Virus record (IMG/VR): IMGVR_UViG_3300037010_002844
Location: 64,001 to 128,000 of that record
DNA: 64,000 bases
Source of the DNA: a virus
Direction: 5' to 3' (one strand)
The notes under the pieces are model-generated. The model did not search any database. It was given only the letters and a program-made list of their open reading frames with translations, and was not told the DNA's origin. Both the position numbers and the translations under genes were made by a program. How positions within the stretch are numbered: the first letter of the stretch is position 1; every line of letters begins with the position of its first letter. Below, in pieces: positions 10,068 to 25,234 of this stretch.

Positions 10068-11198
10068 TTACGTGATTTCCCTCAACTTCCAGACCGTCGT
10101 CGACGCGCCAAAGTCGTCCCTCTTGACCTCGGCACAACACAGGATGAAGGGGTCAGGAAGCTCCTTGCCGCCCCAGACAGAAATCTTCGTGGCCTTGCCA
10201 GTGGGTCCAACCGCAAAGATTTGCACATATTCCTTGCCATTGCGGGTCTTCTTCTTGATGCCCGTCACCGGCTTGCCACCCTTCTTTGCAGCAACAGGGG
10301 CCGTGACAAACCAGACGACCGCCGTGTCACCGTGCTCCAGGTCGTCAATGCTATTGACGCCCTTCTTCTCCAAGGCAGCCAAGATTTCGATGTCAATCAT
10401 GGCGGTGACGTCCAAAGCACCGAAGACGTCGACCATATTTTGAGCACGTTCAGAAGACGACCAGTCCTCGATGTCAGCGTAGTCCCTGACCAACTGGTAG
10501 AAGTTCTTAAGGCCCTCGTGCGGGTCAGACTTCGGGTGTCGCTTGATCAACGCCCCGTGATCGATGTCGACCTCTTCGGTGACCTCGACGCCCTTGCGCT
10601 TCTTGGTCACGGTCTCCACGTGAGAACCGAAGAGGACCTCGTGCATGTGATGATAGTTGTTGAAGACCTTGCCTTCGCCCACGATGTCCATACTGCCGAA
10701 GGCACCGATCTTGACCAGGGCCTCCATCGCCTTCTTGTTGAACTTGCTGTGTTTCCACTCGAAGTTGTCATCCCACAGCAACTCCTCGATAGTGTTGTAG
10801 GGACGGTTGGCCATGATCTCTTCGACCGCCGAGTCGCCGACACCCTTGCAGGACGTCATCGACGGCATCAACTTCTTGCCGGGCAGCGCGGTCCACCCGA
10901 GCCCCGCCAGGTTGATGTCGATCGGGACGATCTGATAGCCCAAGGCCTTTACCTCGCTGAACGCCTTAGCACGTTGAGCAGGAGTGTGCGACATGCTTTC
11001 GAGATAGGCACACAGCCATTCCTCCTCGTGATATGTCATCAGCCAGGCGCACCAGAAGCTGTCAATGGCGTATGCCACTGCATGGCTGTTAGACGTCAGT
11101 ATCCCGTTAGCGAGATAGAACTGGTGATCCGGGTGATCGACTTCGAGGTCATAGGTCTGGTGTCGACCCACGGGTGTGATAGACTTGATGTTACTCAT
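10068..11198 (-). CDS. dnaE: DnaE (Pol III alpha) fragment 8 of 8: C-intein 7 plus the C-terminal extein.
   Basis: C-intein 7 at 11088-11198 is MSNIKSITPVGRHQTYDLEVDHPDHQFYLANGILTSN. The extein at 10071-11087 starts SHAVAYAIDSFWCAWLMTYHEEEW, which matches the DnaE KSHAAAYA helix onward. Confidence 0.85.
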   Translation of the reverse strand: MSNIKSITPVGRHQTYDLEVDHPDHQFYLANGILTSNSHAVAYAIDSFWCAWLMTYHEEEWLCAYLESMSHTPAQRAKAFSEVKALGYQIVPIDINLAGLGWTALPGKKLMPSMTSCKGVGDSAVEEIMANRPYNTIEELLWDDNFEWKHSKFNKKAMEALVKIGAFGSMDIVGEGKVFNNYHHMHEVLFGSHVETVTKKRKGVEVTEEVDIDHGALIKRHPKSDPHEGLKNFYQLVRDYADIEDWSSSERAQNMVDVFGALDVTAMIDIEILAALEKKGVNSIDDLEHGDTAVVWFVTAPVAAKKGGKPVTGIKKKTRNGKEYVQIFAVGPTGKATKISVWGGKELPDPFILCCAEVKRDDFGASTTVWKLREIT

Positions 11199-11419
11199 GT
11201 GAGCAGGTCCTTCAACAGGTCTTCGATCGCTCCTGCGTTCGGTTCATCAAGCATTGCTTTAGCATACTCTTCTTCAATGTACTCGTCAGTCGGCTGGAGT
11301 TCAACCTTCGTTTCGCTTTTGCGTCGGTAACGTGCCGCGGCCCGTAACAGTTCGATCGGACTCAGACCCATGCGTTGGGCAATGTCATTCAGTGCGATTT
11401 CAAACGGCGGTCTTTTCAT
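11195..11419 (-). CDS. Small hypothetical protein (possible HTH) inside the intein-7 gap.
   Basis: 74 aa, with IALNDIAQRMGLSPIELLRAAARY. Overlaps the neighbouring genes at both ends. Confidence 0.4.
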   Translation of the reverse strand: MKRPPFEIALNDIAQRMGLSPIELLRAAARYRRKSETKVELQPTDEYIEEEYAKAMLDEPNAGAIEDLLKDLLT

Positions 11420-12449
11420 ACGCTTTTCCTATCCGATGAACGCCAGGTCGAGGATCTTTCAGGATCTCAAAAAGCTTTTTCAAGCAATCAGGTTCGAAGC
11501 GACCGCCATCCTTGTATGAGAACTGATCGTAAGAAATTCGAATGAGTGTCCAATCATGTTTAGTGATGTAATCATCAAGCATTGCATCCATGCACTTCAC
11601 TCGTTCAAAATTATCCTCGCCTTTAATACGTGCATTAAAATGGATGATTCCATCAAATTCAACATAAATGTGTCTTGATCGATCGGCAATGTCAACTTGC
11701 TTTCTTTTAGATTTGTTTGGAAAAGCAACTGACTTGACGACCTGATTATGAACAAAATCATAACCTTCAACGTTTTTCAACAAATCAAACAACGCTAATT
11801 CCGGAATGCTATGCCAAATAGCATGTGCAGCTTTTGTGCACTTTTCGTAGAACTCATCGGGGTTCAACTCACGCCAACGGGCCAGGCGCTCAGCACGTGC
11901 CTTGAGTATCTCAGGCCGGGTTGACGTTAGTCTTGCAACGTCTGATGAACGTTTACGGGCTTCAGGTCGTCGATTAAGTTCTCCCATTAGTTCAGAGCGA
12001 CGTTTCCTCTCGCCCGGATTGCTCGTGATGGCCTCACTGACCGCACGGCCCATCTTTTCCTTGTAGGCAGTCAAATCATCACCGCGTGCCTTCGCTCGTT
12101 TGAGCCAGGCGAAATTCTGCCCACGATGCTTGAAACGCGCTGTCGAGACTTTCGATGTGATTGCGGCAGTCGGGTACGCTTTCAGGTATTCTTCTTTGCT
12201 CATACCATGCGTCCCCGACAAGTGCTTTGCCAGTGCCTTACCCGTGAAGCCACAGACTTGGCATGTGACACTCTCACTGTCACCGAGTATGAATCCTTGG
12301 CACCTAGCTTGGTGTTTTTCGTAGGCCTTCAGGTAGACGAAGAGCCTGCTACATCGGTCACAACGATGCTGAGGCCCCGTTCGGCAATCATCCACAGGGG
12401 CAACATCTCGTTTGTCTCCTTCGTCCTGAACTTGTGATCCCACGTGCAC
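11400..12449 (-). mobile_element. Free-standing homing-endonuclease gene in the intein-7 gap (MucR-like zinc finger plus a DUF559/Vsr-like PD-(D/E)XK domain).
   Basis: CQVCGFTGKALAKHLSGTHGMSKEEYLKAYP resembles the Ros/MucR finger. The C-terminal SIPELALFDLL...QVDIADRSRHIYVEFDGIIH resembles the DUF559/Vsr-like nuclease core. It lies between N-intein 7 and C-intein 7. Confidence 0.65.
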
Positions 12450-13030
12450 TTTACCTTCTCTCCGGTCACCAACTCCACTTCTACCAAGTCTAGCTCACCG
12501 TGGTCGTGTTTTGCAACAACAGGGACGAGGATGTTTTTACCTGAATTCTCATCACGAGACATGACCAGGTCGCCGGGTTCGATGTGTTGAAGCTGCTTTG
12601 TCTCTTTGAACGTGCCGTCTGAAAAAAAGGTATTTACTGGTTCCGAAAAGTACAAACTTTTATTGAAGCCGTAGCCCGCGAAGTACAGAATCTTGTCGTA
12701 GAGGTTGTTGGCCACCTTCTCGGTATAACCGTTGGCGATGCAACCCTTGACGAACCCGTCACGGGTCTCTTGGGCTGCCTTCTTTGCCGCCTCACCGCCC
12801 GAGATGCTGCGCTTCATGATTGCGCGACGGACCTCGTCACACTTGTCCTTCGGGAAGCCGGCAGCCTTCTCGGCGAGTTCCATCACCTGTTCCTGAAAAA
12901 TTATGCAGTTATGCACGAGAAGGCCATTTGCGAAGAAGTTGTTGTTCTTCTTGACCTGGATGTCGTACACAGGCTGTGCAGGAACACGCTTGATCGCACG
13001 GATCTTGACGGGAACTACGTCAGGCATCAC
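12329..13030 (-). CDS. dnaE: DnaE fragment 7: C-intein 6, extein, N-intein 7.
   Basis: C-intein 6 at 12908-13030 ends PVYDIQVKKNNNFFANGLLVHN. The extein at 12659-12907 is CIIFQEQVMELAE...DEVRRAIMKRS...ILYFAGYGFNK. N-intein 7 at 12332-12658 is SLYFSEPVNTFFSDG...CTWDHKF. Confidence 0.85.
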   Translation of the reverse strand: MMPDVVPVKIRAIKRVPAQPVYDIQVKKNNNFFANGLLVHNCIIFQEQVMELAEKAAGFPKDKCDEVRRAIMKRSISGGEAAKKAAQETRDGFVKGCIANGYTEKVANNLYDKILYFAGYGFNKSLYFSEPVNTFFSDGTFKETKQLQHIEPGDLVMSRDENSGKNILVPVVAKHDHGELDLVEVELVTGEKVKCTWDHKFRTKETNEMLPLWMIAERGLSIVVTDVAGSSST

Positions 13031-13344
13031 TTACGCTCCGTTTCACGATGAGTCTGACAAACAATGTGTAATGACATTGAGCGCGACAAAGCATCACTGC
13101 CTAGAACGACTCGGCAAGGGTTGAGATTTTCCCCCACATGACGCATCCATTCTTGCAAAGCGTTGATCAATCGTTGGGCTTCGTTGAAACCCTCATGCGA
13201 GGGTGGAAACTGACAGCAACCTACCAAATCTCTAGTCCCAGGATCATATGCAATGATTCGCAAATTCCCATGAACGTTCATCTCTAGCGTTAGAGATCCA
13301 TAAACATCGTCATCGATCTCGCTAGTGTAAAGATCTGCGCTCAT
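13027..13344 (-). CDS. Hypothetical protein (cargo ORF in the intein-6 gap).
   Basis: 105-aa ORF with an ATGA-type overlap to fragment 7. No motif recognised. Confidence 0.45.
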   Translation of the reverse strand: MSADLYTSEIDDDVYGSLTLEMNVHGNLRIIAYDPGTRDLVGCCQFPPSHEGFNEAQRLINALQEWMRHVGENLNPCRVVLGSDALSRSMSLHIVCQTHRETERK

Positions 13345-13345
13345 A

Positions 13346-13591
13346 TCATTTTTCTTTCATGTTCAATGATGATGCGCAGAGTTGGCACACTGGTCCATCA
13401 ACACTCAAAACACGTTGACCATGGTATTCGAGCTCCATATCATTTCCGACCTCTTCATAAGCTCGAAATGTGTCGAACCAGTCGGCATACGTGAGATCAT
13501 CACGCTTTCCAAATGCCGTATGTGACTTCATCGTGTTGATAAAGTTCTTGAACGACGTAAGCAACTCCTCTTCAAAATCATCAATCTTCAT
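13346..13591 (-). CDS. Hypothetical protein (cargo ORF in the intein-6 gap).
   Basis: 81-aa ORF starting MKIDDFEEELLTSF. No nuclease motif. Confidence 0.45.
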   Translation of the reverse strand: MKIDDFEEELLTSFKNFINTMKSHTAFGKRDDLTYADWFDTFRAYEEVGNDMELEYHGQRVLSVDGPVCQLCASSLNMKEK

Positions 13592-13662
13592 GTCTAAATT
13601 GTCCTCAATTTGAGGTGATAGTTCAAGGCATCAGACTCCCAGACGCGGTACACCGTGAAGCC

Positions 13663-13842
13663 TCAAGTTCTTGTGGCAAGCGTCCATAATTGATCAAGCC
13701 TAAATTGCTTCTTCATCGCAGGTGTTAGTTCATGCTTCGCTGGGTTACTGTGCCAATAGTCGCCGTCGTACTCGATGATGAGGTTGAGTGATGGCACGAC
13801 GAAGTAGCCTGGTTTCAGTACTTCATTCCCAAAATCTCGTCT
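13663..13842 (-). pseudogene. Remnant of a Vsr-like homing endonuclease.
   Basis: My translation of a start-less open stretch is RRDFGNEVLKPGYFVVPSLNLIIEYDGDYWHSNPAKHELTPAMKKQFRLDQLWTLATRT*. The IEYDGDYWHS core matches AIECNG(V/L)YWHSE of the two intact endonucleases at 15352 and 17837. Confidence 0.6.
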
Positions 13843-14414
13843 TCAGACGTCAGTTCACCTGCTTGCACCCAACCACGAGGCGTCATGACAAGGTGATCTT
13901 CAGTCAAAGACAAAGTTTCTCCACCCTCCAGCTCAACCTCGATGATGTCACGTACGCCGTTTGAGGCGACAGCGACAACTTCGTCCATCTCGACGGTCTT
14001 CGTCATTTCATTGTATGACGGAAGCTTAGTTCCCACCATTCCTTGTTCAACGATTTGTCTAATGGGAACCTCACCTTGCTCAGTAAGGATATGTGTGTCA
14101 CCCGTCAAACACGAGTATGTCTTCTTCAGGATGTCGTTGACGCGGTGATCGCCCCACTCCAACTCCTTGCCGTCATTCTTCGCCTCCAAGTACAGTCGAT
14201 CGACTTTGGCGGCCAAGGGACCCGGGCGATAGATGCTGGTCAGCGTCGCGATGTCGATGATGCTCTTGGGCTTGCCTTTGACAAAGAGTCGCTGAGCGCC
14301 CTGGCCCGTGCAATTGTGAACAACGACGTCGTTAGCGACGAAATTATGATGATTTCGCACCTCGATGTCGTAGACGTGGCGCTTACCCACGCTGCGTGAT
14401 GACACAAGCTTCAA
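13815..14414 (-). CDS. dnaE: DnaE fragment 6: C-intein 5, extein, N-intein 6.
   Basis: C-intein 5 at 14313-14414 is MKLVSSRSVGKRHVYDIEVRNHHNFVANDVVVHN. The extein at 14112-14312 is CTGQGAQ...LTSIYRPGPLAAK...ILKKTYS. N-intein 6 at 13818-14111 is CLTGDTHILTEQG...LTEDHLVMTPRGW. Confidence 0.85.
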   Translation of the reverse strand: MKLVSSRSVGKRHVYDIEVRNHHNFVANDVVVHNCTGQGAQRLFVKGKPKSIIDIATLTSIYRPGPLAAKVDRLYLEAKNDGKELEWGDHRVNDILKKTYSCLTGDTHILTEQGEVPIRQIVEQGMVGTKLPSYNEMTKTVEMDEVVAVASNGVRDIIEVELEGGETLSLTEDHLVMTPRGWVQAGELTSEDEILGMKY

Positions 14415-14772
14415 GCGTCGTCTCCTTCTTTTCTAGCAACTGTAGGTCATATCCACTGACAAGTGCACACTTGAGCGTCGGATGCAACGTTACGAATGCG
14501 TCAAACTTCTCCCTAGCATCATCACGCCACCAGCCCTTGACTTCCACGTACACCCGCTTAAAGAGCTCCAACGTCGGTCATTGACGATGGAAGATCATGT
14601 ACGCCTCTCTTGTGAGCTGGATCCTGATCTCCTCCTCGCTGAAGCCCTCGTCCATGCAATGACGCCAGTTGTCATACAGGTCGACGACGCCATTCTTTCC
14701 GTTCCCGTTGCCCGCTGAGTGCAGAAAGTACAAAGGGGCGCTACGATGAGCGGAGCGCGTCCGTACAATCAC
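14383..14772 (-). pseudogene. T7 endonuclease I-like homing endonuclease remnant with an in-frame TGA (intein-5 gap).
   Basis: ORFs 14578..14772 and 14383..14571 are in the same frame and are separated only by TGA 14578-14580. VYVEVKGWWRDDAREKFDAFVTLHPTL resembles T7 endonuclease I FVETKGLWESDDRKKHLLIREQHPEL as I recall it. The upstream PD motif is not preserved. Confidence 0.55.
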
Positions 14773-14856
14773 ATGTTGCGGAGTCGTGGGCCTGTTGCGT
14801 CTCTGTAAGGCGACATGGCCACGGTCGCGGCGAAACCTGCGACCAAAACGCCCGCC

Positions 14857-15333
14857 TCACGTCAATCCACGAGCTTCGTAACCACTGCTAGACCCAATCA
14901 ACTCGTCGTCTTCGGTTAGGTGCTGTGCCTCAACCCACCCGCGATTCTTCGTCAAGATGGGATGATCAGCGGTGCAGACAAGCTTCTTGCCGTCGTCGAA
15001 CACGAGCTCGATGCACTCCTTGGGTCCTTGGTCGTAAACGACGTCGACGACTGATGTGGTGAACTGCTGCTTGACTTCATCGAAGACCGTCACCTCGTCA
15101 CCGACATGGACGTCCTTGATCAACTTGTACGAGTCATCGCCCATCAGCACTGCCGTGTCCTGGTCGACGCACTGGAAGATGCCTGCCCACTTGCCTTTCT
15201 CGTAGACCTCGTAAGGTTTGGGATCGGTGAAATCAATGACGGCCGGGTGCATGTGCTGCTCGAACCAGGTCTTGATGTCATTGAATGATACCGCATTTGT
15301 ATGTGCGTCAACGTTAGCAACGACTTTTGCCAT
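14857..15333 (-). CDS. dnaE: DnaE fragment 5: degenerate C-intein stub, extein, N-intein 5.
   Basis: MAKVVANVDAHTN is a decayed block-G-like stub. The extein at 15172-15294 is AVSF...DPKPYEVYEKGKWAGIFQ. N-intein 5 at 14860-15171 is CVDQDTAVLMGDD...CTADHPILTKNRGWVEAQHLTEDDEL. Confidence 0.8.
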   Translation of the reverse strand: MAKVVANVDAHTNAVSFNDIKTWFEQHMHPAVIDFTDPKPYEVYEKGKWAGIFQCVDQDTAVLMGDDSYKLIKDVHVGDEVTVFDEVKQQFTTSVVDVVYDQGPKECIELVFDDGKKLVCTADHPILTKNRGWVEAQHLTEDDELIGSSSGYEARGLT

Positions 15334-15351: not shown

Positions 15352-17151
15352 TCACAGGTCCATAACGTACACCGCGTTGGAGCAACCAAAGATCTTAAAA
15401 AGCCTGTGTTCCATCGCCATCTCTTCTTGTGATGCGATCCCCGGAATCGCCCTGACAGCAAATCTATCGATACGATTTTGTCCGTCCGTCCACCAAAACC
15501 TAGGCTGCGTCATGTGATCAAATCTAAAACCAGATAGTTCATACGCCCGGCCAGTGCCACCCAACCTCATGTCACGGTATGTGATCATTTTTTGGTAACC
15601 ATGCTCACGTGACCAATCCCTGGCAGCGTTGATCAACCGCGACATGCCTCCAACGACGATGGTATCGCGGGCCGTTGAAACCCGCGCCAATTCAATTGTC
15701 TTAGATCCCCACTTAGTCTGCTGGTGCGGTTTTCGCAATGTCAATGCACAAATAATGTTTCCAGCAATGTCCTCTAGCCAGAACGAATGCGACGAAGGAG
15801 TGTTTCCATCGAGGTGATTGTTCGCCATGAACTGAGCGGTGATGGCTGGACGACCGCTGCGAAGATGTAGCTTTCGTGCCATCACGCGAGTAGCAAGACC
15901 AAGCTTTACCCTGATCATGCTTTTGATGATGTTTTTCTTTACATCATGGTGCCATTCATCGTCGAAGATATGTAGCAACGACACACCACGCTCAAGAGCG
16001 CGAGTCGACTTGTCTTGGTGATACGATGGTGGAGTACCGGTCGCCTCACTGTGCCAATAGACACCGTTGCACTCGATGGCAATCCTTCCGTTACCTGACA
16101 CGATGTCCAGCTCATAAGGCGCGATTGACTGTCTGTCGTTGGCGATGGCGTTCGAATCGAGCTTGACGAAGAAATCGAACACCTCACGATGCCAGCGAGA
16201 GAAATTAGCCGGGTAGCACGTTGAACACACCTTTCCCTTGTAAAGGACGTTAAAGGGAACAATATCAGGTACGTTACAACTGACGCATGTCACATGCACC
16301 GGTGTTGAGTATCCAGCAAACTCAAATTTTTCGATGTTCCACCTCGACCGCAGTGCATCAACTCGCCGTTCGACCTCTTCGAGAGACAACCGAAAAGGAG
16401 AGTTAGTGCCGTTCTCGATAAGGCGTTTTCTAGTCTCGATGATCGAACGTTTGATATCTTCAGAATTAGCGTTCCGAGACCAATGATTCAAGCGAACGCC
16501 TTCGCCGATCCGTTCTGATCGCCGTTTGATCCTATCGTCAGTTTCTGACGTCTGACCGTGCTGCGTCCAGTGTTTTTCTACTTGCCATTTTTCAGTCAAT
16601 GCTCGAGAGATGTTATGCGCAGCTCTTGTGATAGATTCATTATTTTCTTTAGTTTGTCCTGTTCTCCAGTGCCCGTGTTTTTTGATGAAATCACGACAAC
16701 CTTGTGCGGCCCTTCGAACCGATTCAGACGTTGTTTCTGACAGCCCCTTGTTCCATGCAGGCAATGATTTTGATTTCCGGCTAAGCGCACCTCTTACTTG
16801 AGAGTTCTTCTTGCTACAAACTCCACAGAGACGTTCATATCCCGTTTGAAAGGTCATGAACTTGACCGGCCCTGAACACTGAACGCACGGTCCAGGGTGC
16901 TCTCGAAAAAGAAGGTACGCAGCCTCCGCATTGAGCCCGTGCTTTTTAAGGAGATGTGCGCGGAGCGAATTTAGGCTAGCTTTTCGCAATGGATCATTGC
17001 ACTGTGGGCACCTCGAAGGACACGATGTCATCGCCGGGCCCGAGCTCCCTCGCAAGGATGGTGCCCCTGTTGCTGGTGACGATTCGTTGGTCGCCGTAGA
17101 CGCCTCGTGTCGTTCCATCGTCGAGTTGGATCTCAAACCACCCTCTTTCAT
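15352..17151 (-). mobile_element. Free-standing homing-endonuclease gene (zinc finger, NUMOD3-like repeats, Vsr-like nuclease, conserved C-terminal domain) at junction 4.
   Basis: Contains CPQCNDPL...HLLKKH, WNKGLSETTSESV and TGQTKENNESI repeats, and YELDIVSGNGRIAIECNGVYWHSE. The C-terminus is YRDMRLGGTGRAYELSGFRF...FWWTD...IFGCSNAVYVMDL. It is a paralog of 17837..19570. The true start is probably an internal Met (17118 or 17031), because the track start overlaps fragment 4. Confidence 0.75.
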
Positions 17152-17851
17152 GTCGTTCCTTTTTGATGATGAGCTCGATGGCGCGCTCGATGAGCCGCAT
17201 CGTTTCTAGACCTAGGAGGTCGTACTTGATGAACTCTCCGATCTTCTCAAGGTGTTTATAATTTACGCCCTCGACCCAAGGTGACTGTGGCTCGCGGACG
17301 CCGGCCTTGCCTTTGGACGTCACCAAAGGCATCTTGTTGGGCAAATCGTCTGCAATCAGCACACCACCCGCGTGACGACCGAGACTACGATTCTGCTTGA
17401 AGAGGATCTTGATCGACTCGGCGACGACCGGGTACTTCTCAATGAAGCCGCGAAACGACGGGCTGACCGGCTGCTTACACTCTGGGCTACAGCCCTGGCA
17501 GATGGACTTCGACTCCGGGCCCTTAGGAGCCCTGCAGTGGAAGGCCATGGCCTCATCGTAGGTCAAGACGAACAGATTCTTGTCGTCGCCTTCCTTCATC
17601 GTCGCCTTACGGACCTCGTCCTCGACGGTCCGCGTGGCAGCGTTGGTCTCCTCGAATGGGATGCCGTAGAACTTGCCGATATCCTTTACAAGCGTTTTTA
17701 GTTTGAAACAGTTATAATTGCTGATGGGAACGACGTTTTCCCACCCAAAAAAGTTTCGAAGTTCATCAAGAACCTCATCTCGCCTGGCAAGATCGGTGTT
17801 GTGAACAACGACGCTCTTGTTGGACGCCAAAAATGAATGAACGACCATCAC
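16994..17851 (-). CDS. dnaE: DnaE fragment 4: very short C-intein 3, palm/fingers extein, degenerate N-intein remnant.
   Basis: Starts MVVHSFLASNKSVVVHN (17798-17848, ATG at 17848). The extein is TDLARRDEVLDELRNFFGWENVV...SLGRHAGGVLI...IKYDLLGLETMRLIERA. The tail at 16997-17140 is WFEIQLDDGTTRGVYGDQRIVTSNRGTILARELGPGDDIVSFEVPTVQ. Confidence 0.85.
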   Translation of the reverse strand: MMVVHSFLASNKSVVVHNTDLARRDEVLDELRNFFGWENVVPISNYNCFKLKTLVKDIGKFYGIPFEETNAATRTVEDEVRKATMKEGDDKNLFVLTYDEAMAFHCRAPKGPESKSICQGCSPECKQPVSPSFRGFIEKYPVVAESIKILFKQNRSLGRHAGGVLIADDLPNKMPLVTSKGKAGVREPQSPWVEGVNYKHLEKIGEFIKYDLLGLETMRLIERAIELIIKKERHERGWFEIQLDDGTTRGVYGDQRIVTSNRGTILARELGPGDDIVSFEVPTVQ

Positions 17852-19570
17852 ATGAATCCTAACTCAACTACAGTTGAATTTACATGCGCTCGTTGTGGTC
17901 GAAACCACGAAACGCTACGAGCATTGAAGATCCACGAGGCACGACACAGGCGAGAAGACGCCAGGCCTCCCAAACAGGTGTCAACTTACGCGTGTCCGTG
18001 GTGTGAGGCGTCATATGACAGCGGGCGTAAGTTGACATTGCACTGCACAAAAACGCACCAAAAATCACCCGTCGTTGTGTATGAAACAAGGTACCCAGGG
18101 TGCAGGAAGACGTGCATCGATTGTTGCGACTGGGTCAGGTTCATCGATCAAGAAAAAGGATACCCCGAACGGTGTCCACGTTGTAGCCGAAAACACGCAT
18201 ACGCGTCCAAGGGCACCTCGTCATGGAACAAAGGCCTGACGAAAGACAATGACGAACGCATGTCAGCCAGTGCTGCAAACATGCGAGCTCACTACAAGGA
18301 ACACGGTCACCACAACTCCGACAAGACAAAGGAAAACAACGAAAGCCTTAAACAAAAGGCGGCAAAAATCAGCGACAGCCTGCGGAGGTATTATGCAACG
18401 CACAGCGGCTGGTCACTTGGCCTGACAAAGGATACGTCTAGCATCATTGAATCTCGCAGTAAGAAGATCAGCGCTTCGTTGAAAGGACGATTCTTTAGCG
18501 ACGTAACGCTTGAAAAAATGCGCAAGGCAAAGTTGCTGACGCACGACGAGGTACAAAAACGCCTCAAAGAAAAGCAGCTTAAACTCATTGACGAATATGT
18601 CGATACTGTCACCAAAGCGCGCATCGAATGCACGATATGTTCAACAATATTTGAGCGTTGCGTTGGCGCAGTGTTCAACAACGAGGCCAAGTGTCCCACC
18701 TGCTTTCCGCCTTGGTCAGACAAAACGAGCAGGTGGCAACAGGACGTCTACGCATTTATCCAGACGCTGGCACCTGACGCAGTCCTTAGCGATCGTAAGA
18801 CGCTCGGCGGAATGGAGCTCGACATACTCATTCCATCGCGCATGTTTGCCATCGAGTGCAATGGCCTATACTGGCACAGCGAGGCCGCCAATAGATTTGA
18901 GCACGATCACGCGGAAAAGAAGAGATTGCTGTCCCTCAAAGCCGGCGTATCGCTTTTCACGTTATTTGAGGATGAGTGGCGCGACAAACGACCGATAATC
19001 GAAAGCATGTTGCGCCATCGCCTTGGGTTTTCTACCAAAGTCGATGCGCGTAAGTTGAAAGCAGAACGCTGCGAGCCCGAAGAAGTTCGAGAATTCATCA
19101 ATCAGTGCCACCTCGACGGTCACGTGAGGGCCCAATTTGCCGTGCGATTGGTAACCTCATCGGGCGAAATCGTAGGCGCCTGCAGCCTTAGGTGGGCACG
19201 AAATGGGGCAGACAGAACGACGATTGAGATCGCTCGCCTGTGCTTCAAGCTTGGCACACATGTACGAGGCGGGGTGTCAAAATTGCTATCAAAGGCAAAA
19301 GCTATAGCAAGAGAAAACAATGCAGCGAGGTTGATGTCTTACTCAGACAATCGCTTGGGAGGAAACGGTTATGCCACCTCAGGCATGAAGTTCAACGGTA
19401 CCACAGTCGCTCGCTTCTGGTGGACTGACTTCATGCATCGTTACGACAGGTTCAAGTACCGAGCCAACAAGAAGCAAGGTCTAACAGAAAAACAGGTAGC
19501 GGAGGCTGCCGGCGTTTATCGCATCTATGGCTGTAGCAACTCTCGCTACGTCTTAGACGTCACAGCGTGA
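17837..19570 (+). mobile_element. Homing-endonuclease gene on the opposite strand inside the intein-3 gap (C2H2-like finger, NUMOD3-like repeats, Vsr-like nuclease, conserved C-terminal domain).
   Basis: Contains CARCGRNHETLRALKIHEARH, then WNKGLTKDNDERM and SDKTKENNESL and GLTKDTSSIIESRSKKIS, then MELDILIPSRMFAIECNGLYWHSE. The C-terminus is YSDNRLGGNGYATSGMKF...FWWTD...IYGCSNSRYVLDV. Its ATG at 17837 overlaps, head to head, the ATG at 17848 of fragment 4. Confidence 0.8.
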
Positions 19571-19872: not shown

Positions 19873-20610
19873 TCAAATTTCATAGTTGCGCTCGCTGTGG
19901 TCTGTTCTTCTCTTAGACGCGCACCAATCGCTGCAAAAATTGTCTCCTTCGCCACACGCAAGGAACGTGCCAGGAATGACGCCCATGCAATAACCGACGT
20001 CATGTGATGGATCACCTCCACTTAGAATGGACGTATTGAACGGTACCACGTGGAATCTGTGATCGTCTTCAACAGTCAGGTCGACGTATCTAGCGTTGGA
20101 AGAGCCCCAACCACCGTGCTCGATCGATACGACCTCAACGCTGCCGCATGATGCCATCAATTCATCTCCGACCTTAAGGTCGCGGCAGTACACGATGACG
20201 CCGTCAGCTCTGACAAATTTGTGACCGGGCACCACCAAAATGTGGCCCAACGTACCATCATTGGCCCTAACTCTGACCCAGACAGCGTCCTCGAATGGCC
20301 GCAAATTTCTAGCATAGGTCGCAGTTACTGCGTGTGGCATTCCATCGCCTCCCAGGACGACGTCGCCGACAATGATGTCAACAGCTCGCTTATGAGTGCC
20401 GTCTGTCATGACGACAAGATGGTCCTCGTGGACGCAGTCGATATCAGGAGCACCAGAGTTATGTGTCAGCACCCAATCGCTATCGTTGTTGGACACCCAA
20501 AACGTATGCTGGCCTTCGACCTCGATGTCGATGAGTTCTACACTTTCATCGACAACCTCGATAGCTTCAATTTTGGCCGTGCTTGCTGATGAGATGTTGG
20601 GTTCCTGCAT
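19873..20610 (-). CDS. dnaE: DnaE fragment 3: C-intein 2, 7-aa extein, long N-intein 3.
   Basis: C-intein 2 at 20458-20610 ends ELIDIEVEGQHTFWVSNNDSDWVLTHN. The extein SGAPDID is at 20437-20457. N-intein 3 runs down from 20436 as CVHEDHLVVMTDG...VVPGHKF...ARYVDLTVEDDHRF (to about 20053). About 60 unrelated codons follow. Confidence 0.8.
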   Translation of the reverse strand: MQEPNISSASTAKIEAIEVVDESVELIDIEVEGQHTFWVSNNDSDWVLTHNSGAPDIDCVHEDHLVVMTDGTHKRAVDIIVGDVVLGGDGMPHAVTATYARNLRPFEDAVWVRVRANDGTLGHILVVPGHKFVRADGVIVYCRDLKVGDELMASCGSVEVVSIEHGGWGSSNARYVDLTVEDDHRFHVVPFNTSILSGGDPSHDVGYCMGVIPGTFLACGEGDNFCSDWCASKRRTDHSERNYEI

Positions 20611-21532
20611 AGTCCCTGTGCTCTAGATTGGCAATCGTATGGTACAAACCTTGTCGACGAAGTTCACCATAGAAGTCATTCATGTACACGACGTCGATGC
20701 GCTGACCAGACGCCACAACGACTTCCCGTGAACGTGCGTTTGAGTTAAGCAACTTTGAGAAACGCGATTTGCCTTCTCGCACACCTTTCAACTCCACGTA
20801 TCGGTCCTCATCACTGAACCAAAAGTCTGGAGTGTAACACTTCTCTTTGCCATCGATGACAACATGGAAAGACCTATGTTCATAGAATGGCATCTTACCG
20901 AGGTGCAAGCAATATCTGTAGTAGTCGGCTTCGAACGAGCTCTTGAAGTACGGGCTGTTTAGGATGTCGGAACGAAAACACGAGCGTCCGTTCACATGTG
21001 AAGCAACCATATCACGTGACTGTGCCTCGCGGGTGCACCGTTTGGAACAGAACCGCGGCACGTAGCTCTTCTTGGTGACGATCGGTTCGCTACAAACTTC
21101 GCATACCAACGTGTGGCGGTCAAACCTCGATGCAGCGAAACATTTGGGTGAACAGAACCTGCGATTGACGTTCTTCGTTGAGAAAGTGCCTAGACACTGT
21201 ACACATGTCAGTGTACGGAGCTCATTCTTTGTCAGCGCTTTCGCAGTGTACTTGTGCCTGCACGCATTCGAACATAGTTTTCTGTTGTTGTGACACTTTG
21301 GAACGTAGAACTCATCGCCGTACTCGACGCACGTCTTCACAAGCCTCGAGGGCATGGGAGCGTGTGACATCAGCTTCCTGTGAGCGACGGCACACTCATC
21401 AGTGCAGTACGGGCGATGGAGCCTACTACCAGAACCCTTGCAGTTGGGCTCATAGTTGAACTGAAACATAATACCACAGTGTTTACACTGTTTCTCAATG
21501 ATGCTCATAGTGGTACGTGTACAGCTCGTCAC
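20567..21532 (-). mobile_element. Free-standing homing-endonuclease gene in the intein-2 gap (four CxxC...FCSxxC zinc modules plus a T7 endonuclease I-like PD-(D/E)XK domain).
   Basis: The repeats are CKHCG...RPYCTDEC, CVEYG...RKLCSNAC, CVQCL...RRFCSPKC and CEVCS...PRFCSKRC. The C-terminal KCYTPDFWFSDEDRYVELKGVREGKSRFSKL matches the T7 endo I YTPDF...FVETKG core as recalled. Confidence 0.7.
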
Positions 21533-21992
21533 TCGTCGACAGCTCAGATGTATACTTCTTCACAGGTTGTCCATCAGGACCCACTGTCAACCACACATGA
21601 TTTTCAGAACACGTGAACGTAGTACCATTCACCTTCACGCGGTACGTCTTCTCATGTTTTGTGGTCATGGTGAACGTAACTTTACGGTGTGAGCCATCCT
21701 GTGAGACAACGCTGTCACCGACTTTCACGTCTCGAAGCGCGGACGACGAACCATCTGACATCAATACCTTTGTGTCTGGCGACAGACACCTGTGAACGCT
21801 AAGGAATCGCGCGAAAGGCAGGTCCCAGAACAACGGGTCCAAGTCGGTGATGTATAGGACGTAGGCGACCAGAGAGCCACCGCCCGAATTGTGGACTGCA
21901 ATACCTTCCACGTTGTAAGTGTGGCTGTTTTCCACACACAGGTCTACGACCTCACCCTTATACGGTACGACAGTCTTACTTCTGAGCTTCAT
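21495..21992 (-). CDS. dnaE: DnaE fragment 2: C-intein 1, 33-aa extein, N-intein 2.
   Basis: C-intein 1 at 21888-21992 is [35 protein letters not shown]. The extein at 21789-21887 is [33 protein letters not shown], matching the DnaE GSAAGSLVAY..ITDIDP..FERFLNPER region. N-intein 2 at 21498-21788 is [13 protein letters not shown]...CSENHVW. Confidence 0.85.
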
Positions 21993-22076: not shown

Positions 22077-23762
22077 TCATTCAACCTCGATTAGGTCATC
22101 ATCTTCAGTCAAGTGTTGTGCTTCAATCCACCCACGATTCTTCGTCAGAAACTTATGCTCCTTGGTGCACCTGATCTTCTTACCGTCATCAAACTCGAGT
22201 TCTAGCAGCTCCTCATCAACCTGATACCTGAAGATCTGAGTCACCATCTGATCAACACCATATGCATCCTTGATAACGTCGCCCACCTTGATGGTGCCAA
22301 TGGGAGCATGCATGCCGTCAGCCATTAGAACCCGCGTCTCAGGAACGAAACAACCGCGGGCTGGGCCGGTAAGGCACACATTGCGTGCCAGCTCCATGAT
22401 CTTCTGGTAGGAAATGAAGTAGTCAGAGTTTTTCATCACCTTAATGACGCCGAGTTCCTCCTTGAGGCGCGCGATATACTCTGGCTTGTCTTGAAGACCA
22501 CGCTTCACCATGCCCACCTTACAAAGCGAGATGAGGTGATTGAACGAGGTCGTGCCTTCGGGCACCAACAACCTCGTCGGAAACTTGGGCGAACGATCGG
22601 GTGGAATCTCCCCGATGACACTGTGTGCGATATCGTGAGTCCGCTCAATGGCGTCACAGACGACTTCATCGTCATACCAGTCGGTGCCTTCCTTGGAGCG
22701 CTGGTACTCATCCCACATCTGTTGGGCGTTCTTCGGATAGAGCTCACACTTCAGCTCATCCTTCGACTTCGGAATCGCGTCAGGATTGATCTCCTGGTAG
22801 TTCATCCAACCCAGGCGCTTGTAGAGCTCACGGTCCTTCCAACGATCGGGATTATAGTAGTGAGCATCGCCGGTGACGATCAGCTGCTTGTTGAGCCCAT
22901 TGCGACGAGCGAACTCCAGGATCGCGCGGTTGACGAGGTTCTGCGCCGGTAGGCGATTGAACTGCAGCTCGAGGAAGTAGTTTCCTTCGCCGACTGCATC
23001 GACCATGTGCTGGTAGGTATTGCCCACCGCGACAACGCATTTCTCGAGCAGCACAGGGTCACTGAGCAACCGTGCGTCGAGCTCGTCAAACTTGTACTGT
23101 TGGATTTCCTGGAATATGGAGTACGCCGGCATGCCGCCGATACAAGCGCTGCTGACGATGATGTCGCCGCCTTTGGCTGCCTCTTTGAGGACAGCATGGT
23201 CAATGCGCGGGAACTTGTAGAAGCCCTTCAAGAATCCCTTCGAACATGCTGCGAAGATCGCCAACAGGCCCTTCTGGTTCTTGGGCAGAATGACTAGGTG
23301 ATGCCGTCGGTTGACGGGATTGAAGTGTTTGGTCGATTTGGACTCTTCCTCGTTTTCGACAGTCAAGGCGTTGGACATCTCAATGTCCTCAGTCTCATCA
23401 TTTTCATCGATGGTGGCGATGATCTTGGTCTGCAGCTTTTCCTGCTCCTTAGCAAGCTTGGCCGCAACCCTCCTGTCTCCCTTCGCCTGCTCTGCGAGTT
23501 CGACGTCCTTCTTCCATTGCTCCAGGTCGGGATGGTAGTACGCCTCGACGCCGGGAATGTACTTGAACGACTTTCCCTTATTGGCCTTGGCCCACTCCTC
23601 GACCCACAGTTGAGCGTGGGCATAGGAGTTCATGTTCCCGTGCTCGGTGATGGCATGGCCATCGAGCCCGTTCTCCATGCACCACTTGAAGTGTTCATCG
23701 GGATAGCCCAAACCATCGAAGGGCGCATTACGAGAAGCCCGTGTGGTTGTGCAAACCGACAA
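22077..23762 (-). CDS. dnaE: DnaE fragment 1: PHP and N-terminal half, plus N-intein 1.
   Basis: Contains FDGLGYPDEHFKWCMENGLDGHAITEHGNMNSYAHAQ (PHP) and ends ...CLTGPARG, followed by N-intein 1 at 22080-22352 (CFVPETRVLMADG...CTKEHKFLTKNRGWIEAQHLTEDDDLIEVE*). The track start (TTG 23762) is an artefact. The real N-terminus is in another frame (see 23728..23820). Confidence 0.85.
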   Translation of the reverse strand: MSVCTTTRASRNAPFDGLGYPDEHFKWCMENGLDGHAITEHGNMNSYAHAQLWVEEWAKANKGKSFKYIPGVEAYYHPDLEQWKKDVELAEQAKGDRRVAAKLAKEQEKLQTKIIATIDENDETEDIEMSNALTVENEEESKSTKHFNPVNRRHHLVILPKNQKGLLAIFAACSKGFLKGFYKFPRIDHAVLKEAAKGGDIIVSSACIGGMPAYSIFQEIQQYKFDELDARLLSDPVLLEKCVVAVGNTYQHMVDAVGEGNYFLELQFNRLPAQNLVNRAILEFARRNGLNKQLIVTGDAHYYNPDRWKDRELYKRLGWMNYQEINPDAIPKSKDELKCELYPKNAQQMWDEYQRSKEGTDWYDDEVVCDAIERTHDIAHSVIGEIPPDRSPKFPTRLLVPEGTTSFNHLISLCKVGMVKRGLQDKPEYIARLKEELGVIKVMKNSDYFISYQKIMELARNVCLTGPARGCFVPETRVLMADGMHAPIGTIKVGDVIKDAYGVDQMVTQIFRYQVDEELLELEFDDGKKIRCTKEHKFLTKNRGWIEAQHLTEDDDLIEVE

Positions 23763-24211: not shown

Positions 24212-25234
24212 CTAGGCGATGACCTTCCGGAAGTAATCGATGGAACGTTTGAGGCCTTCTGCGAGCTGCACCTTGGGCTCCCACCCTAGACGATTCTGGG
24301 CTTGGGTGATGTCGGGCCGACGCTGCGTCGGGTCATCGACAGGCAGCGGTTTGTAGTCAAACCAACGGGCCACATCGCGGTGAGGTGCCTCGCGCCCACC
24401 GTAGATTTGGTGAATGACCTCCTTCGCCAACTGATTCATCGTGAACTCGTGCGGGTTGCCGAGGTTGATGGGCATCCGCGGGTTGTTGCCCAGATCGCCC
24501 AAGGTCACAATGCCTTTGATCAGGTCGTCCACGTAACAAAAGCTACGTGTCTGTTGACCGTCACCGTAGATCGTCAACTTCTCGCCCTTCAAGGCCTGGA
24601 CGATGAAATTGCTGACGACCCGGCCATCGTATGGGTCCATGTGCGGACCGTAGGTGTTGAAGATCCGGACCATGCGAGCGTCGACACCGTGGGTATGTAG
24701 GTAGTCATAGCACAGGGCCTCTGCCGCACGTTTTCCCTCGTCGTAACAGGCTCTGGGCCCGTAGGAGTTGACGCGACCTCGGTATGACTCGACCTGCGGC
24801 GAACTCTCGGGATCACCATAGACCTCAGAAGTCGAAGCGTGGACCACGATCGATCCATGCGATGCCGCCAGTTCCAGGACGTTCTGGACGCCTAGCGTAC
24901 AGGTCATCATGGTCTCCACGGGCATGCGCTGGTAGATGGGCGGCGATGCTGGGCAGGCGAAGTTGTAGATGATGTCGAAGCGTACCGAGTGCATCGACCC
25001 GGTGTCGTAATCGTGAATCACGCGACTAAAGCGACTGTCTCCATGGACGTCAGCGATATCGCAGTACATCAACGTCGCCAGCGGAAACTTCTTGATCTCA
25101 TCGACCTGAATCGACTCCGGCTTCGACGAACAGAAATTGTCGAGGCCGAGGACCTTGTCACCCGCCCTCAAGTGATGTAGCATCAAGTGCGAACCCAGAA
25201 AACCAGCGGCTCCCGTGACGAGGACAGTCTTCAT
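24212..25234 (-). CDS. UDP-glucuronate decarboxylase (UDP-xylose synthase)-like extended SDR.
   Basis: VLVTGAAGFLGSHL, then ASTSEVYGDPESSPQVESYRGRVNSYGPRACYDEGKRAAEALCYDY. This closely matches the UXS signature ASTSEVYGDP...GPRACYDEGKR as I recall it. Confidence 0.85.
   Translation of the reverse strand: MKTVLVTGAAGFLGSHLMLHHLRAGDKVLGLDNFCSSKPESIQVDEIKKFPLATLMYCDIADVHGDSRFSRVIHDYDTGSMHSVRFDIIYNFACPASPPIYQRMPVETMMTCTLGVQNVLELAASHGSIVVHASTSEVYGDPESSPQVESYRGRVNSYGPRACYDEGKRAAEALCYDYLHTHGVDARMVRIFNTYGPHMDPYDGRVVSNFIVQALKGEKLTIYGDGQQTRSFCYVDDLIKGIVTLGDLGNNPRMPINLGNPHEFTMNQLAKEVIHQIYGGREAPHRDVARWFDYKPLPVDDPTQRRPDITQAQNRLGWEPKVQLAEGLKRSIDYFRKVIA

Follow-up and report, generated by a model that had tools for sequence, protein, structure and literature searches.

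A heptapeptide with two catalytic aspartates encoded between halves of two different split inteins in the fractured DNA polymerase III alpha gene of an uncultured large phage

The window analyzed here, a stretch of 64,000 nucleotides (positions 64,001 to 128,000 of IMG/VR virus record IMGVR_UViG_3300037010_002844), contains eight minus-strand open reading frames (ORFs), F1 to F8, that jointly encode a bacterial-type DNA polymerase III (Pol III) alpha subunit, DnaE, of an uncultured large phage. The third of these, F3, contributes only seven residues to the polymerase, SGAPDID, and the remainder of F3 consists of the end of one intein followed by the beginning of a second. Judging from its sequence and that of its neighbors, F3 is very probably a bridging fragment, with a different trans-splicing intein ligating it on each side, and the heptapeptide that it would insert coincides with the active site of the enzyme.

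F3 (19873..20610, minus strand, with the stop codon at 19873-19875) codes for 245 residues that read MQEPN...DWVLTHN, then SGAPDID, then CVHEDHLVVMTDG... Residues 1 to 51 (20458..20610, minus strand) are the C-terminal half of split intein 2 (IntC2), with block F LIDIEVEGQHTFWV and block G VLTHN; residues 52 to 58 (20437..20457, minus strand) are the micro-extein E3; and residues 59 to 245 (19876..20436, minus strand), beginning CVHEDH, are the N-terminal fragment of intein 3 (IntN3). Intein 2 has Ser52 as its +1 nucleophile, and position -1 of intein 3 is occupied by Asp58. An earlier note on this DNA had given the same ORF coordinates, which stand, but had left out the strand, which is the minus strand; its reading of a C-intein 2 ending in THN and followed by SGAPDID and an N-intein 3 agrees with the minus-strand translation of 20437-20457, and the halves of two different inteins that it saw joined by seven residues have both been located. 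The core of IntN3 (20038..20436, minus strand, 133 residues) is nearly a whole HINT domain (Pfam PT-HINT, 1.2e-8), with Cys1 (CVHEDH), the block B His (VVPGHKF), and block F YVDLTVEDDHRFHVVPF. It is followed by a tail (19876..20037, minus strand, 54 residues) composed of a segment after VPF (N/D-V, a hairpin, and GY) and a Cys motif, C-x9-C-x6-C-x3-C (GYCMGVIPGTFLACGEGDNFCSDWCASK). The hairpin part is kept in all IntN3 homologues, and the Cys motif is found only in P0001-4 and L003. We note that this Cys-rich end of F3 (19876-19990; GYCMGVIPGTFLACGEGDNFCSDWCASKRR), absent from most IntN3 homologues, is similar to the [FY]CSxxC repeats in the neighboring endonuclease ORF (20567-21532), and it may be a captured zinc-finger remnant.

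The heptapeptide fits DnaE without adjustment. Exteins were spliced in silico and compared by phmmer with solved structures, with residue numbers counted along the printed alignment. E. coli Pol III alpha (5fku, 2hnh) aligns with the spliced exteins at an E value of about 1e-29, gap-free at both SGAPDID junctions, and SGAPDID is placed on V397-S398-M399-P400-D401-F402-D403. The catalytic residues D401 and D403 both lie inside the heptapeptide, and D555 corresponds to the Asp of KYDLLGL in F4; these three aspartates form the catalytic triad of Pol III alpha, as reported by Pritchard & McHenry (1999) and for the structures of 2006. The proposal that PDID represents the Pol III alpha catalytic region is thus borne out by the alignment to D401 and D403, as is the expectation that SGAPDID fills the gap in the polymerase, since it supplies exactly the residues between extein 2 and extein 4 and none extra is needed. 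The predicted spliced product, ...FLSVHR-SGAPDID-TDLARRD..., would rebuild the PDxD catalytic motif.

Natural uninterrupted alleles read in the same way. The uninterrupted P0029 has ..FLSVYR-KGAPDID-TDLADRD.., the 692-residue protein of L003 has ..FISVYR-QGAPDID with IntN3 following immediately, and the uninvaded alleles conform to R-[KQ]GAPDID-[TS]D without an indel. Exteins 1, 2, and 3, when joined, are identical to the L003 protein at 344 of 496 positions with no gaps, and exteins 2, 3, and 4 are identical to P0029 at 205 of 259 positions and gap-free near the junctions. Given these gap-free matches of the spliced product to natural alleles, the correspondence of SGAPDID to DnaE is not a matter of chance. 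The junctions at inteins 1, 5, 6, and 7 are likewise gap-free, those of inteins 5, 6, and 7 locally, by comparison with the uninterrupted L003 protein.

Intein 2, on the upstream side of the heptapeptide, is predicted to be a canonical split intein of 97 plus 51 residues with an endonuclease gene in between. Its N-terminal half (IntN2; 21498..21788, minus strand, 97 residues) forms the C terminus of F2, beginning at Cys69 of F2 (CLSPDTKV...) right after the extein sequence ..FLSVHR, and includes block B ..CSENH; blocks F and G are in IntC2, where VLTHN precedes the +1 Ser. Extein 2 (21789..21887, minus strand, 33 residues) joins the N-terminal side of SGAPDID. When IntN2 and IntC2 are placed end to end they are identical to the contiguous intein 2 of P0122 at 70 of 139 positions, and the sole gap is the split point. 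The +1 residue is K or Q in empty alleles and S, C, or T whenever intein 2 is present, a replacement that makes sense only if splicing is required. The free-standing endonuclease-like gene between the halves (20567..21532, minus strand, 321 residues) overlaps both the end of F2 and the start of F3 and matches PHROG families phrog_1271 ('HNH endonuclease', 2.3e-16) and phrog_945 ('endonuclease'); a homologue is present at the same site in L001 and absent in L010. In L010 (7902-9070), the intein 2 halves are on adjacent ORFs 41 nucleotides apart with no endonuclease gene between them, and the endonuclease gene is between F1 and F2. The split state of intein 2 therefore persists without the endonuclease, as the L010 halves remain split with the gene gone.

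Intein 3 is of a different kind, apparently a split intein of natural origin whose C-fragment has only 16 to 18 residues. The earlier note had called its larger piece an N-intein; it is indeed an intein N-fragment, but not a canonical N-half, since blocks A, B, and F are all present and the partner is 17 or 18 residues long. Block F of IntN3 (VDLTVEDDHRF) can be aligned with that of five other IntC halves encoded in the gene, and the terminal His-Asn and +1 nucleophile of intein 3 are on a separate polypeptide, F4, which begins (M)MVVHSFLASNKSVVVHN followed by T. This leader, IntC3 (17798..17851, minus strand, 17 to 18 residues and then Thr+1), precedes extein 4 (17141..17797, minus strand; TDLARRDE...KKERHERG), which contains KYDLLGL and joins the C-terminal side of SGAPDID. 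The length of IntC3 is limited by an in-frame TGA at 17864-17866, and in-frame stops in four loci bound the leader to 16 to 23 residues. Short IntC3 leaders are present in 42 of 110 clusters of F4 homologues (24 of them exactly 17 residues long), with the consensus M-[IV]-x-H-S-F-L-x-x-x-x-S-V-V-V-H-N followed by T; the H-N is conserved in all 42, and the +1 residue is T in 33, S in 7, and C in 2. In P0145, in which intein 3 is contiguous, the segments ..SFNIAPFDV.. and ..LNSCLQNNLTIVSHN occur in series, and IntN3 plus IntC3 is collinear with it, which places the split within an insertion that is specific to this family and lies between blocks F and G. An 'H-x-F' motif occurs in both IntN3 and IntC3, and we rejected its interpretation as an endonuclease-insertion duplication, as the contiguous intein 3 of P0145 has both segments serially.

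F3 and F4 are truly separate genes. In the window they are separated by a homing-endonuclease gene on the opposite strand (17837..19570, plus strand, 577 residues; phrog_3339, 3.5e-59), and their equivalents are separated by about 14 unrelated genes in L001 and by two in both L003 and L010. The intervening segments are small ORFs in L001 (10625-16055), two unrelated genes of unknown function in L003 (11437-12644), and a gene for a DnaJ-like chaperone with one other gene in L010 (9109-10852). The gap between the intein 3 halves behaves as an insertion hotspot, with a gene content that differs in every relative. We also note that short leaders of another family, of about 20 residues (..HSFKKKNFWVGSHN, then S/C/T-D), occupy this insertion site in P0046, P0047, P0067, P0069, P0073, and P0081, which suggests that intein 3 has an allelic variant whose C-fragment is about as short.

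Exactly this F3 protein is encoded on six or more independent metagenome contigs, including one of 309 kb, and misassembly is thereby ruled out. A word-indexed search together with a full HMMER profile search for PDxD bracketed by an intein end and an intein start yielded 17 diverged cluster representatives with an extein of six or seven residues between the two inteins. The seven-residue exteins are SGAPDID, SGSPDID, CGAPDID, CGSPDID, SDAPDID, TSWPD[IV]D, and SDPPDVD, and the six-residue exteins are SLPDID, SYPDVD, and SMPDID, for which the upstream insertion site has moved by one residue. Both inteins are split in the window and in P0005, P0006, P0008, P0009, P0123, P0129, P0136-138, and P0162; intein 2 is contiguous and intein 3 split in P0122, P0127, P0131, and P0133; the reverse is seen in P0192; and both are contiguous in P0145. 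The arrangement had been expected to be unusually compact; compact it is, but it is not a one-off, since at least 17 diverged clusters share the double-intein layout. Among the 110 clusters of F4 homologues, 21 have IntC2 and SGAPDID fused to extein 4 and 27 have both sites empty. Counted separately by site over motif occurrences, and from queries that were biased, 17 are occupied at both, 25 at site 2 only, 33 at site 3 only, and 29 at neither.

The catalytic residues H50, N51, S52, C59, H130, D177, and H184 of F3 are invariant across the five closest homologues. Across the 16 double-occupied sequences, the P, D, and D of the extein and the Cys1, block B His, and block F Asp of intein 3 are invariant, and the HN of intein 2 is nearly so. 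Inactive intein halves, which the earlier note had named as grounds for giving up its reading, are not what the sequences indicate, as both inteins keep full catalytic sets. Selection on the IntN3 core and on IntC2 is purifying, with ratios of nonsynonymous to synonymous substitution rates (dN/dS) of 0.09 for the IntN3 core (versus L011), about 0.13 for IntC2 (versus L010), and 0.30 for the IntN3 tail; comparisons of the IntN3 core with L001 and L010 were unusable, with synonymous sites saturated. The seven extein codons have no nonsynonymous and four synonymous differences relative to L001 and L010. The architecture is kept at 50 to 60% identity in other phage contigs. A tblastn search with F3 of 50,697 isolated-phage records gave no match, and the F1 extein matches only DnaE-like genes of Bacillus and Streptomyces phages among isolated phages, at ∼25% identity; the clade is thus without a close relative among the isolated-phage records searched.

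Structure prediction is consistent with these assignments for the intein cores. An AlphaFold2 (AF2) model of F3, built from an alignment of five sequences and of moderate confidence, has predicted local distance difference test (pLDDT) scores of 70 to 86 in the HINT core, with IntC2 disordered and the IntN3 tail below 50. Foldseek searches with the F3 core matched inteins or HINT domains exclusively, as whole inteins, with target-normalized template modeling (TM) scores of 0.77 to 0.80, including gp41-1 (E value 6e-6, TM 0.77). In the model of P0145, both intein cores are confidently predicted, but neither the extein nor the part of intein 3 from block F to block G reaches a pLDDT of 50. The contiguous precursor of P0145 demonstrates that two complete HINT domains can be encoded six residues apart.

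In the assembly that we propose, IntC2 and the IntN2 at the end of F2 would form a canonical split intein, linking extein 2 to Ser52. IntN3, as a near-complete HINT domain that is probably pre-folded, would capture the 17- to 18-residue IntC3 peptide at the start of F4, and splicing from Cys59 would link Asp58 to Thr+1 of extein 4. The fully spliced product would contain ...SVHRSGAPDIDTDLAR..., with ..FLSVHRSGAPDIDTDL.. spanning the junctions, and ligation of E3 to extein 4 would create the tryptic peptide SGAPDIDTDLAR. We infer that both splicing reactions occur, that IntN3 is pre-folded, and that the two inteins are orthogonal. There is presumably no obligatory splicing order; natural alleles with intein 3 behind a long N-extein, and others with intein 2 ahead of a long C-extein, resemble each of the half-spliced products, such that neither reaction need come first.

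Several observations weigh against this assembly. In block B of intein 3 (VVPGH), the Thr that inteins usually have is replaced by Val. AF2 confidence is low for the extein, the IntN3 tail, and the C-terminal part of the P0145 intein 3, and the sterics of the arrangement and the IntN3-IntC3 interface are therefore without structural support. The F4/F5 junction within the same gene is without any nucleophile, and the final enzyme probably consists of more than one chain. Lastly, the final 17 residues of IntC2 are identical to IntC3 at 7 of 17 positions, and intramolecular cross-complementation, in which the IntC2 end would pair with IntN3, may be compatible with the sequence.

The F4/F5 junction and the Val in block B are what might be expected if only one of the F3 junctions were covalently healed, with the other intein half acting as a noncovalent dimerization module and the heptapeptide attached on one side. 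The F4/F5 break lacks both Cys1 and a +1 nucleophile, hence is probably noncovalent, and there is phage precedent in the Aeh1 NrdA, which is reportedly assembled via interaction domains derived from a mobile element (PMC3045599). We nonetheless regard this explanation as unlikely, as both inteins keep Cys1, the block B His, the block F Asp/His, the terminal His-Asn, and a +1 Ser, Thr, or Cys across 16 to 17 diverged sequences, the conversion of K/Q to S/C/T at +1 accompanies intein 2 only, and D401 and D403 need a continuous active-site strand.

The resemblance of IntC2 to IntC3 bears on two further readings in which F3 engages itself. In one, which we consider quite improbable, F3 would be a self-caged double adaptor, with the last strands of IntC2 filling the empty slot of the tethered IntN3 and keeping both halves soluble and inert. 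The IntC3 peptide and IntN2 would then displace the plug, and the catalytic aspartates would be installed only with all neighbors present; failure of the cage would give cyclo-SGAPDID. In the broader version, F3 simply self-reacts, its IntC2 strands docking into the IntN3 slot and either caging the protein or releasing cyclo-SGAPDID. The order of IntC, peptide, and IntN is identical to that of SICLOPPS, in which both halves reportedly come from one intein and the peptide is cyclized (Scott et al. 1999), and IntN3 is without the final strands only; AF2 also draws residues 48 to 51 (LTHN) as a strand, but at a pLDDT of 41 to 56, which is below usable confidence. This version is very improbable. 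The cognate partners of both halves are encoded next door, the heptapeptide is plain DnaE active-site sequence, and in P0145 the extein is flanked by complete contiguous inteins, for which such docking is impossible. IntC2 and IntN3 are also both strongly acidic and would repel each other (net charges of -10 and -11, with +1 for IntC3, in the clade of the window; the pattern is weaker in other clades), and these like charges are suggestive of a bias against self-association.

It is extremely improbable that the locus is a decaying, nonfunctional DnaE gene riddled with selfish elements, or an assembly artifact with an F3 ORF that has no role, as its extreme fragmentation (eight ORFs and four endonuclease genes) and the loss of the PHP HxH motif from the F1 N terminus could suggest, because none of the eight ORFs is disrupted and each is collinear with uninterrupted alleles, dN/dS lies far under 1, and both the F3 protein and its architecture recur on other contigs as described above. 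We thus favor F3 as a fragment bridged on both sides by splicing.

The whole gene contains six split inteins and one non-intein break, between F4 and F5. Matches to Pfam PHP, DNA_pol3_alpha, and DNA_pol3_finger are spread over F1, F2, F4, F6, and F7, with Hint and intein domains at the fragment ends. F1 (22077-23762, minus strand) codes for the PHP domain together with the first part of the polymerase domain (residues 1 to 470) followed by IntN1 (residues 471 to 561), and F2 (21495-21992, minus strand) codes for IntC1 (21888..21992, minus strand, 35 residues at its N terminus), extein 2, and IntN2. F4 (16994-17851, minus strand) codes for IntC3, extein 4, and a 48-residue tail, and the remaining DnaE fragments (10068..15333), F5 (14857-15333), F6 (13815-14414), F7 (12329-13030), and F8 (10068-11198), all on the minus strand, carry split inteins 5, 6, and 7. 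The locus thus has the organization of a fractured gene, with a host gene in separate ORFs that carry split-intein halves and a free-standing endonuclease between halves. Four endonuclease genes are present in the DnaE cluster, one of them at 15352-17151 in the F4/F5 region; two of the inter-fragment genes match phrog_3339 'homing endonuclease' (1e-59 and, for the gene between F3 and F4, the value given above). As to the Vsr-like or GIY-YIG type of endonuclease that goes with fractured genes, Pfam matches of the endonuclease ORFs, to REase_MTES_1575 and GNAT, are sub-threshold only, and a Mom-like C-terminal domain is seen in PHROG.

The F4/F5 break was considered as a seventh intein, a reading that was rejected because Cys1 is missing, Ala occupies position +1, and a HINT domain would need more than the ∼58 additional residues. 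The C terminus of F4 (16997-17140) is a 48-residue beta-rich tail, WFEIQLDDGTTRGVYGDQRIVTSNRGTILARELGPGDDIVSFEVPTVQ, that is similar to intein block A and has no Cys/Ser1, and the N terminus of F5 (15295-15333) is MAKVVANVDAHTN and then Ala; the uninterrupted homologue P0090 reads straight through. From these sequences, the F4/F5 split is probably noncovalent, which would make the mature enzyme a pair of chains. With no nucleophile at this junction, splicing does not heal all of the breaks in the gene.

Other features of the cluster are of interest in their own right. IntN1 (22080-22352) and IntN5 (14860-15171) are identical at 44 of 92 positions, with DDGKK..CT..H..LTKNRGW.EAQHLTEDD.LI nearly the same in both; they are paralogous inteins that occupy two sites in the same gene, and the question of mis-pairing arises. 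Intein 7 (12332-12658 plus 11088-11198) begins with Ser (SLYFSEPV) and ends TSN before Ser, and its insertion site is GYGFNK/SH; the classical site of the split intein in cyanobacterial DnaE lies a few residues away. The start of F1 (23700-23762) reads VCTTTRAS where L003 has LHNHTTFS, and the first PHP metal-binding HxH motif is missing. The F1 equivalent of L001 (7056-8390) is without the first ∼130 residues, which suggests a further break upstream. An NAD-dependent epimerase/dehydratase-like gene (24212-25234) is directly upstream of the DnaE cluster, a position that is kept in L001, L003, and L010.

Two inteins can evidently be maintained six to seven residues apart on a polymerase active site, where nearly every extein residue is junction-proximal. 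The locus is a natural test case for the extein context needed for splicing, and for the coexistence and homing of inteins with targets overlapping within 21 bp. The short-IntC class has so far been engineered, for C-terminal semisynthesis, and intein 3 is an apparent natural example. Six split inteins in one cell should not cross-react if the enzyme is correctly assembled and are thus a candidate orthogonal set for multi-piece protein assembly, with the caveat that IntN1 and IntN5 are close paralogues. In its order of IntC, short peptide, and IntN, with a peptide of six to seven residues, F3 is like SICLOPPS, and it is unlike SICLOPPS in that its halves derive from two different inteins and the partner of each is elsewhere. 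Full-text literature searches returned neither a 6- to 7-residue extein between inteins nor a natural short IntC, an absence that is not proof of novelty.

The closest comparisons are with other intein systems, natural and engineered. Three-segment trans-splicing has been engineered with a middle piece whose two ends are ligated by separate inteins that do not cross-react (PMC12707363; Pinto et al. 2020, PMC7090010), and F3 has the same IntC(a)-segment-IntN(b) layout; unlike these constructs it is natural, its middle segment is six to seven residues and not a domain, and none of its extein residues is more than three or four positions away from a splice junction. Short-IntC splits have likewise been engineered, as in Ssp DnaB S11 (6 residues) and Npu DnaE C15 (PMC2664965, PMC3620165), and reviews of 2025 and 2026 describe natural split sites as only canonical or N-proximal (PMC11766414, PMC13014065). 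Intein 3 resembles S11 and C15 in having blocks A, B, and F in the N-fragment and essentially the last strand(s) with His-Asn in the C-fragment, in contrast to these man-made splits, its fragments carry extra conserved segments, ..VPF[DN]V..GY and HSFL... Neighboring inteins are also described for haloarchaeal MCM-a and MCM-d, which are contiguous with internal LAGLIDADG endonucleases (PMC10643990); the sites are similarly clustered at a conserved catalytic region with co-conversion at +1 (P to S there and K/Q to S/C/T here), whereas the DnaE intein 2 and intein 3 sites are 18 to 21 bp apart and both occupied in many genomes.

The nearest natural relatives are the fractured genes, in which the two halves of a split intein are separated by a free-standing gene for a homing endonuclease (Dassa et al. 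2009, PMC2677866). That study included three DnaE loci, one of which already had part of a second intein, and the breaks were single, with an IntN of 88 to 105 residues, an IntC of 33 to 54 residues, and no short extein (PMC2677866). As there, a phage-like replication gene is cut into ORFs with split-intein halves and an endonuclease between them; unlike there, six split inteins and a non-intein break are in one gene, two inteins are seven residues apart, one IntC is 16 to 18 residues long, and one endonuclease gene is on the opposite strand. The arrangement would thus appear to be a further form of the known fractured gene, and what seems to be new is the spacing of two inteins at the active site, the apparent natural short IntC, and the set of six inteins.

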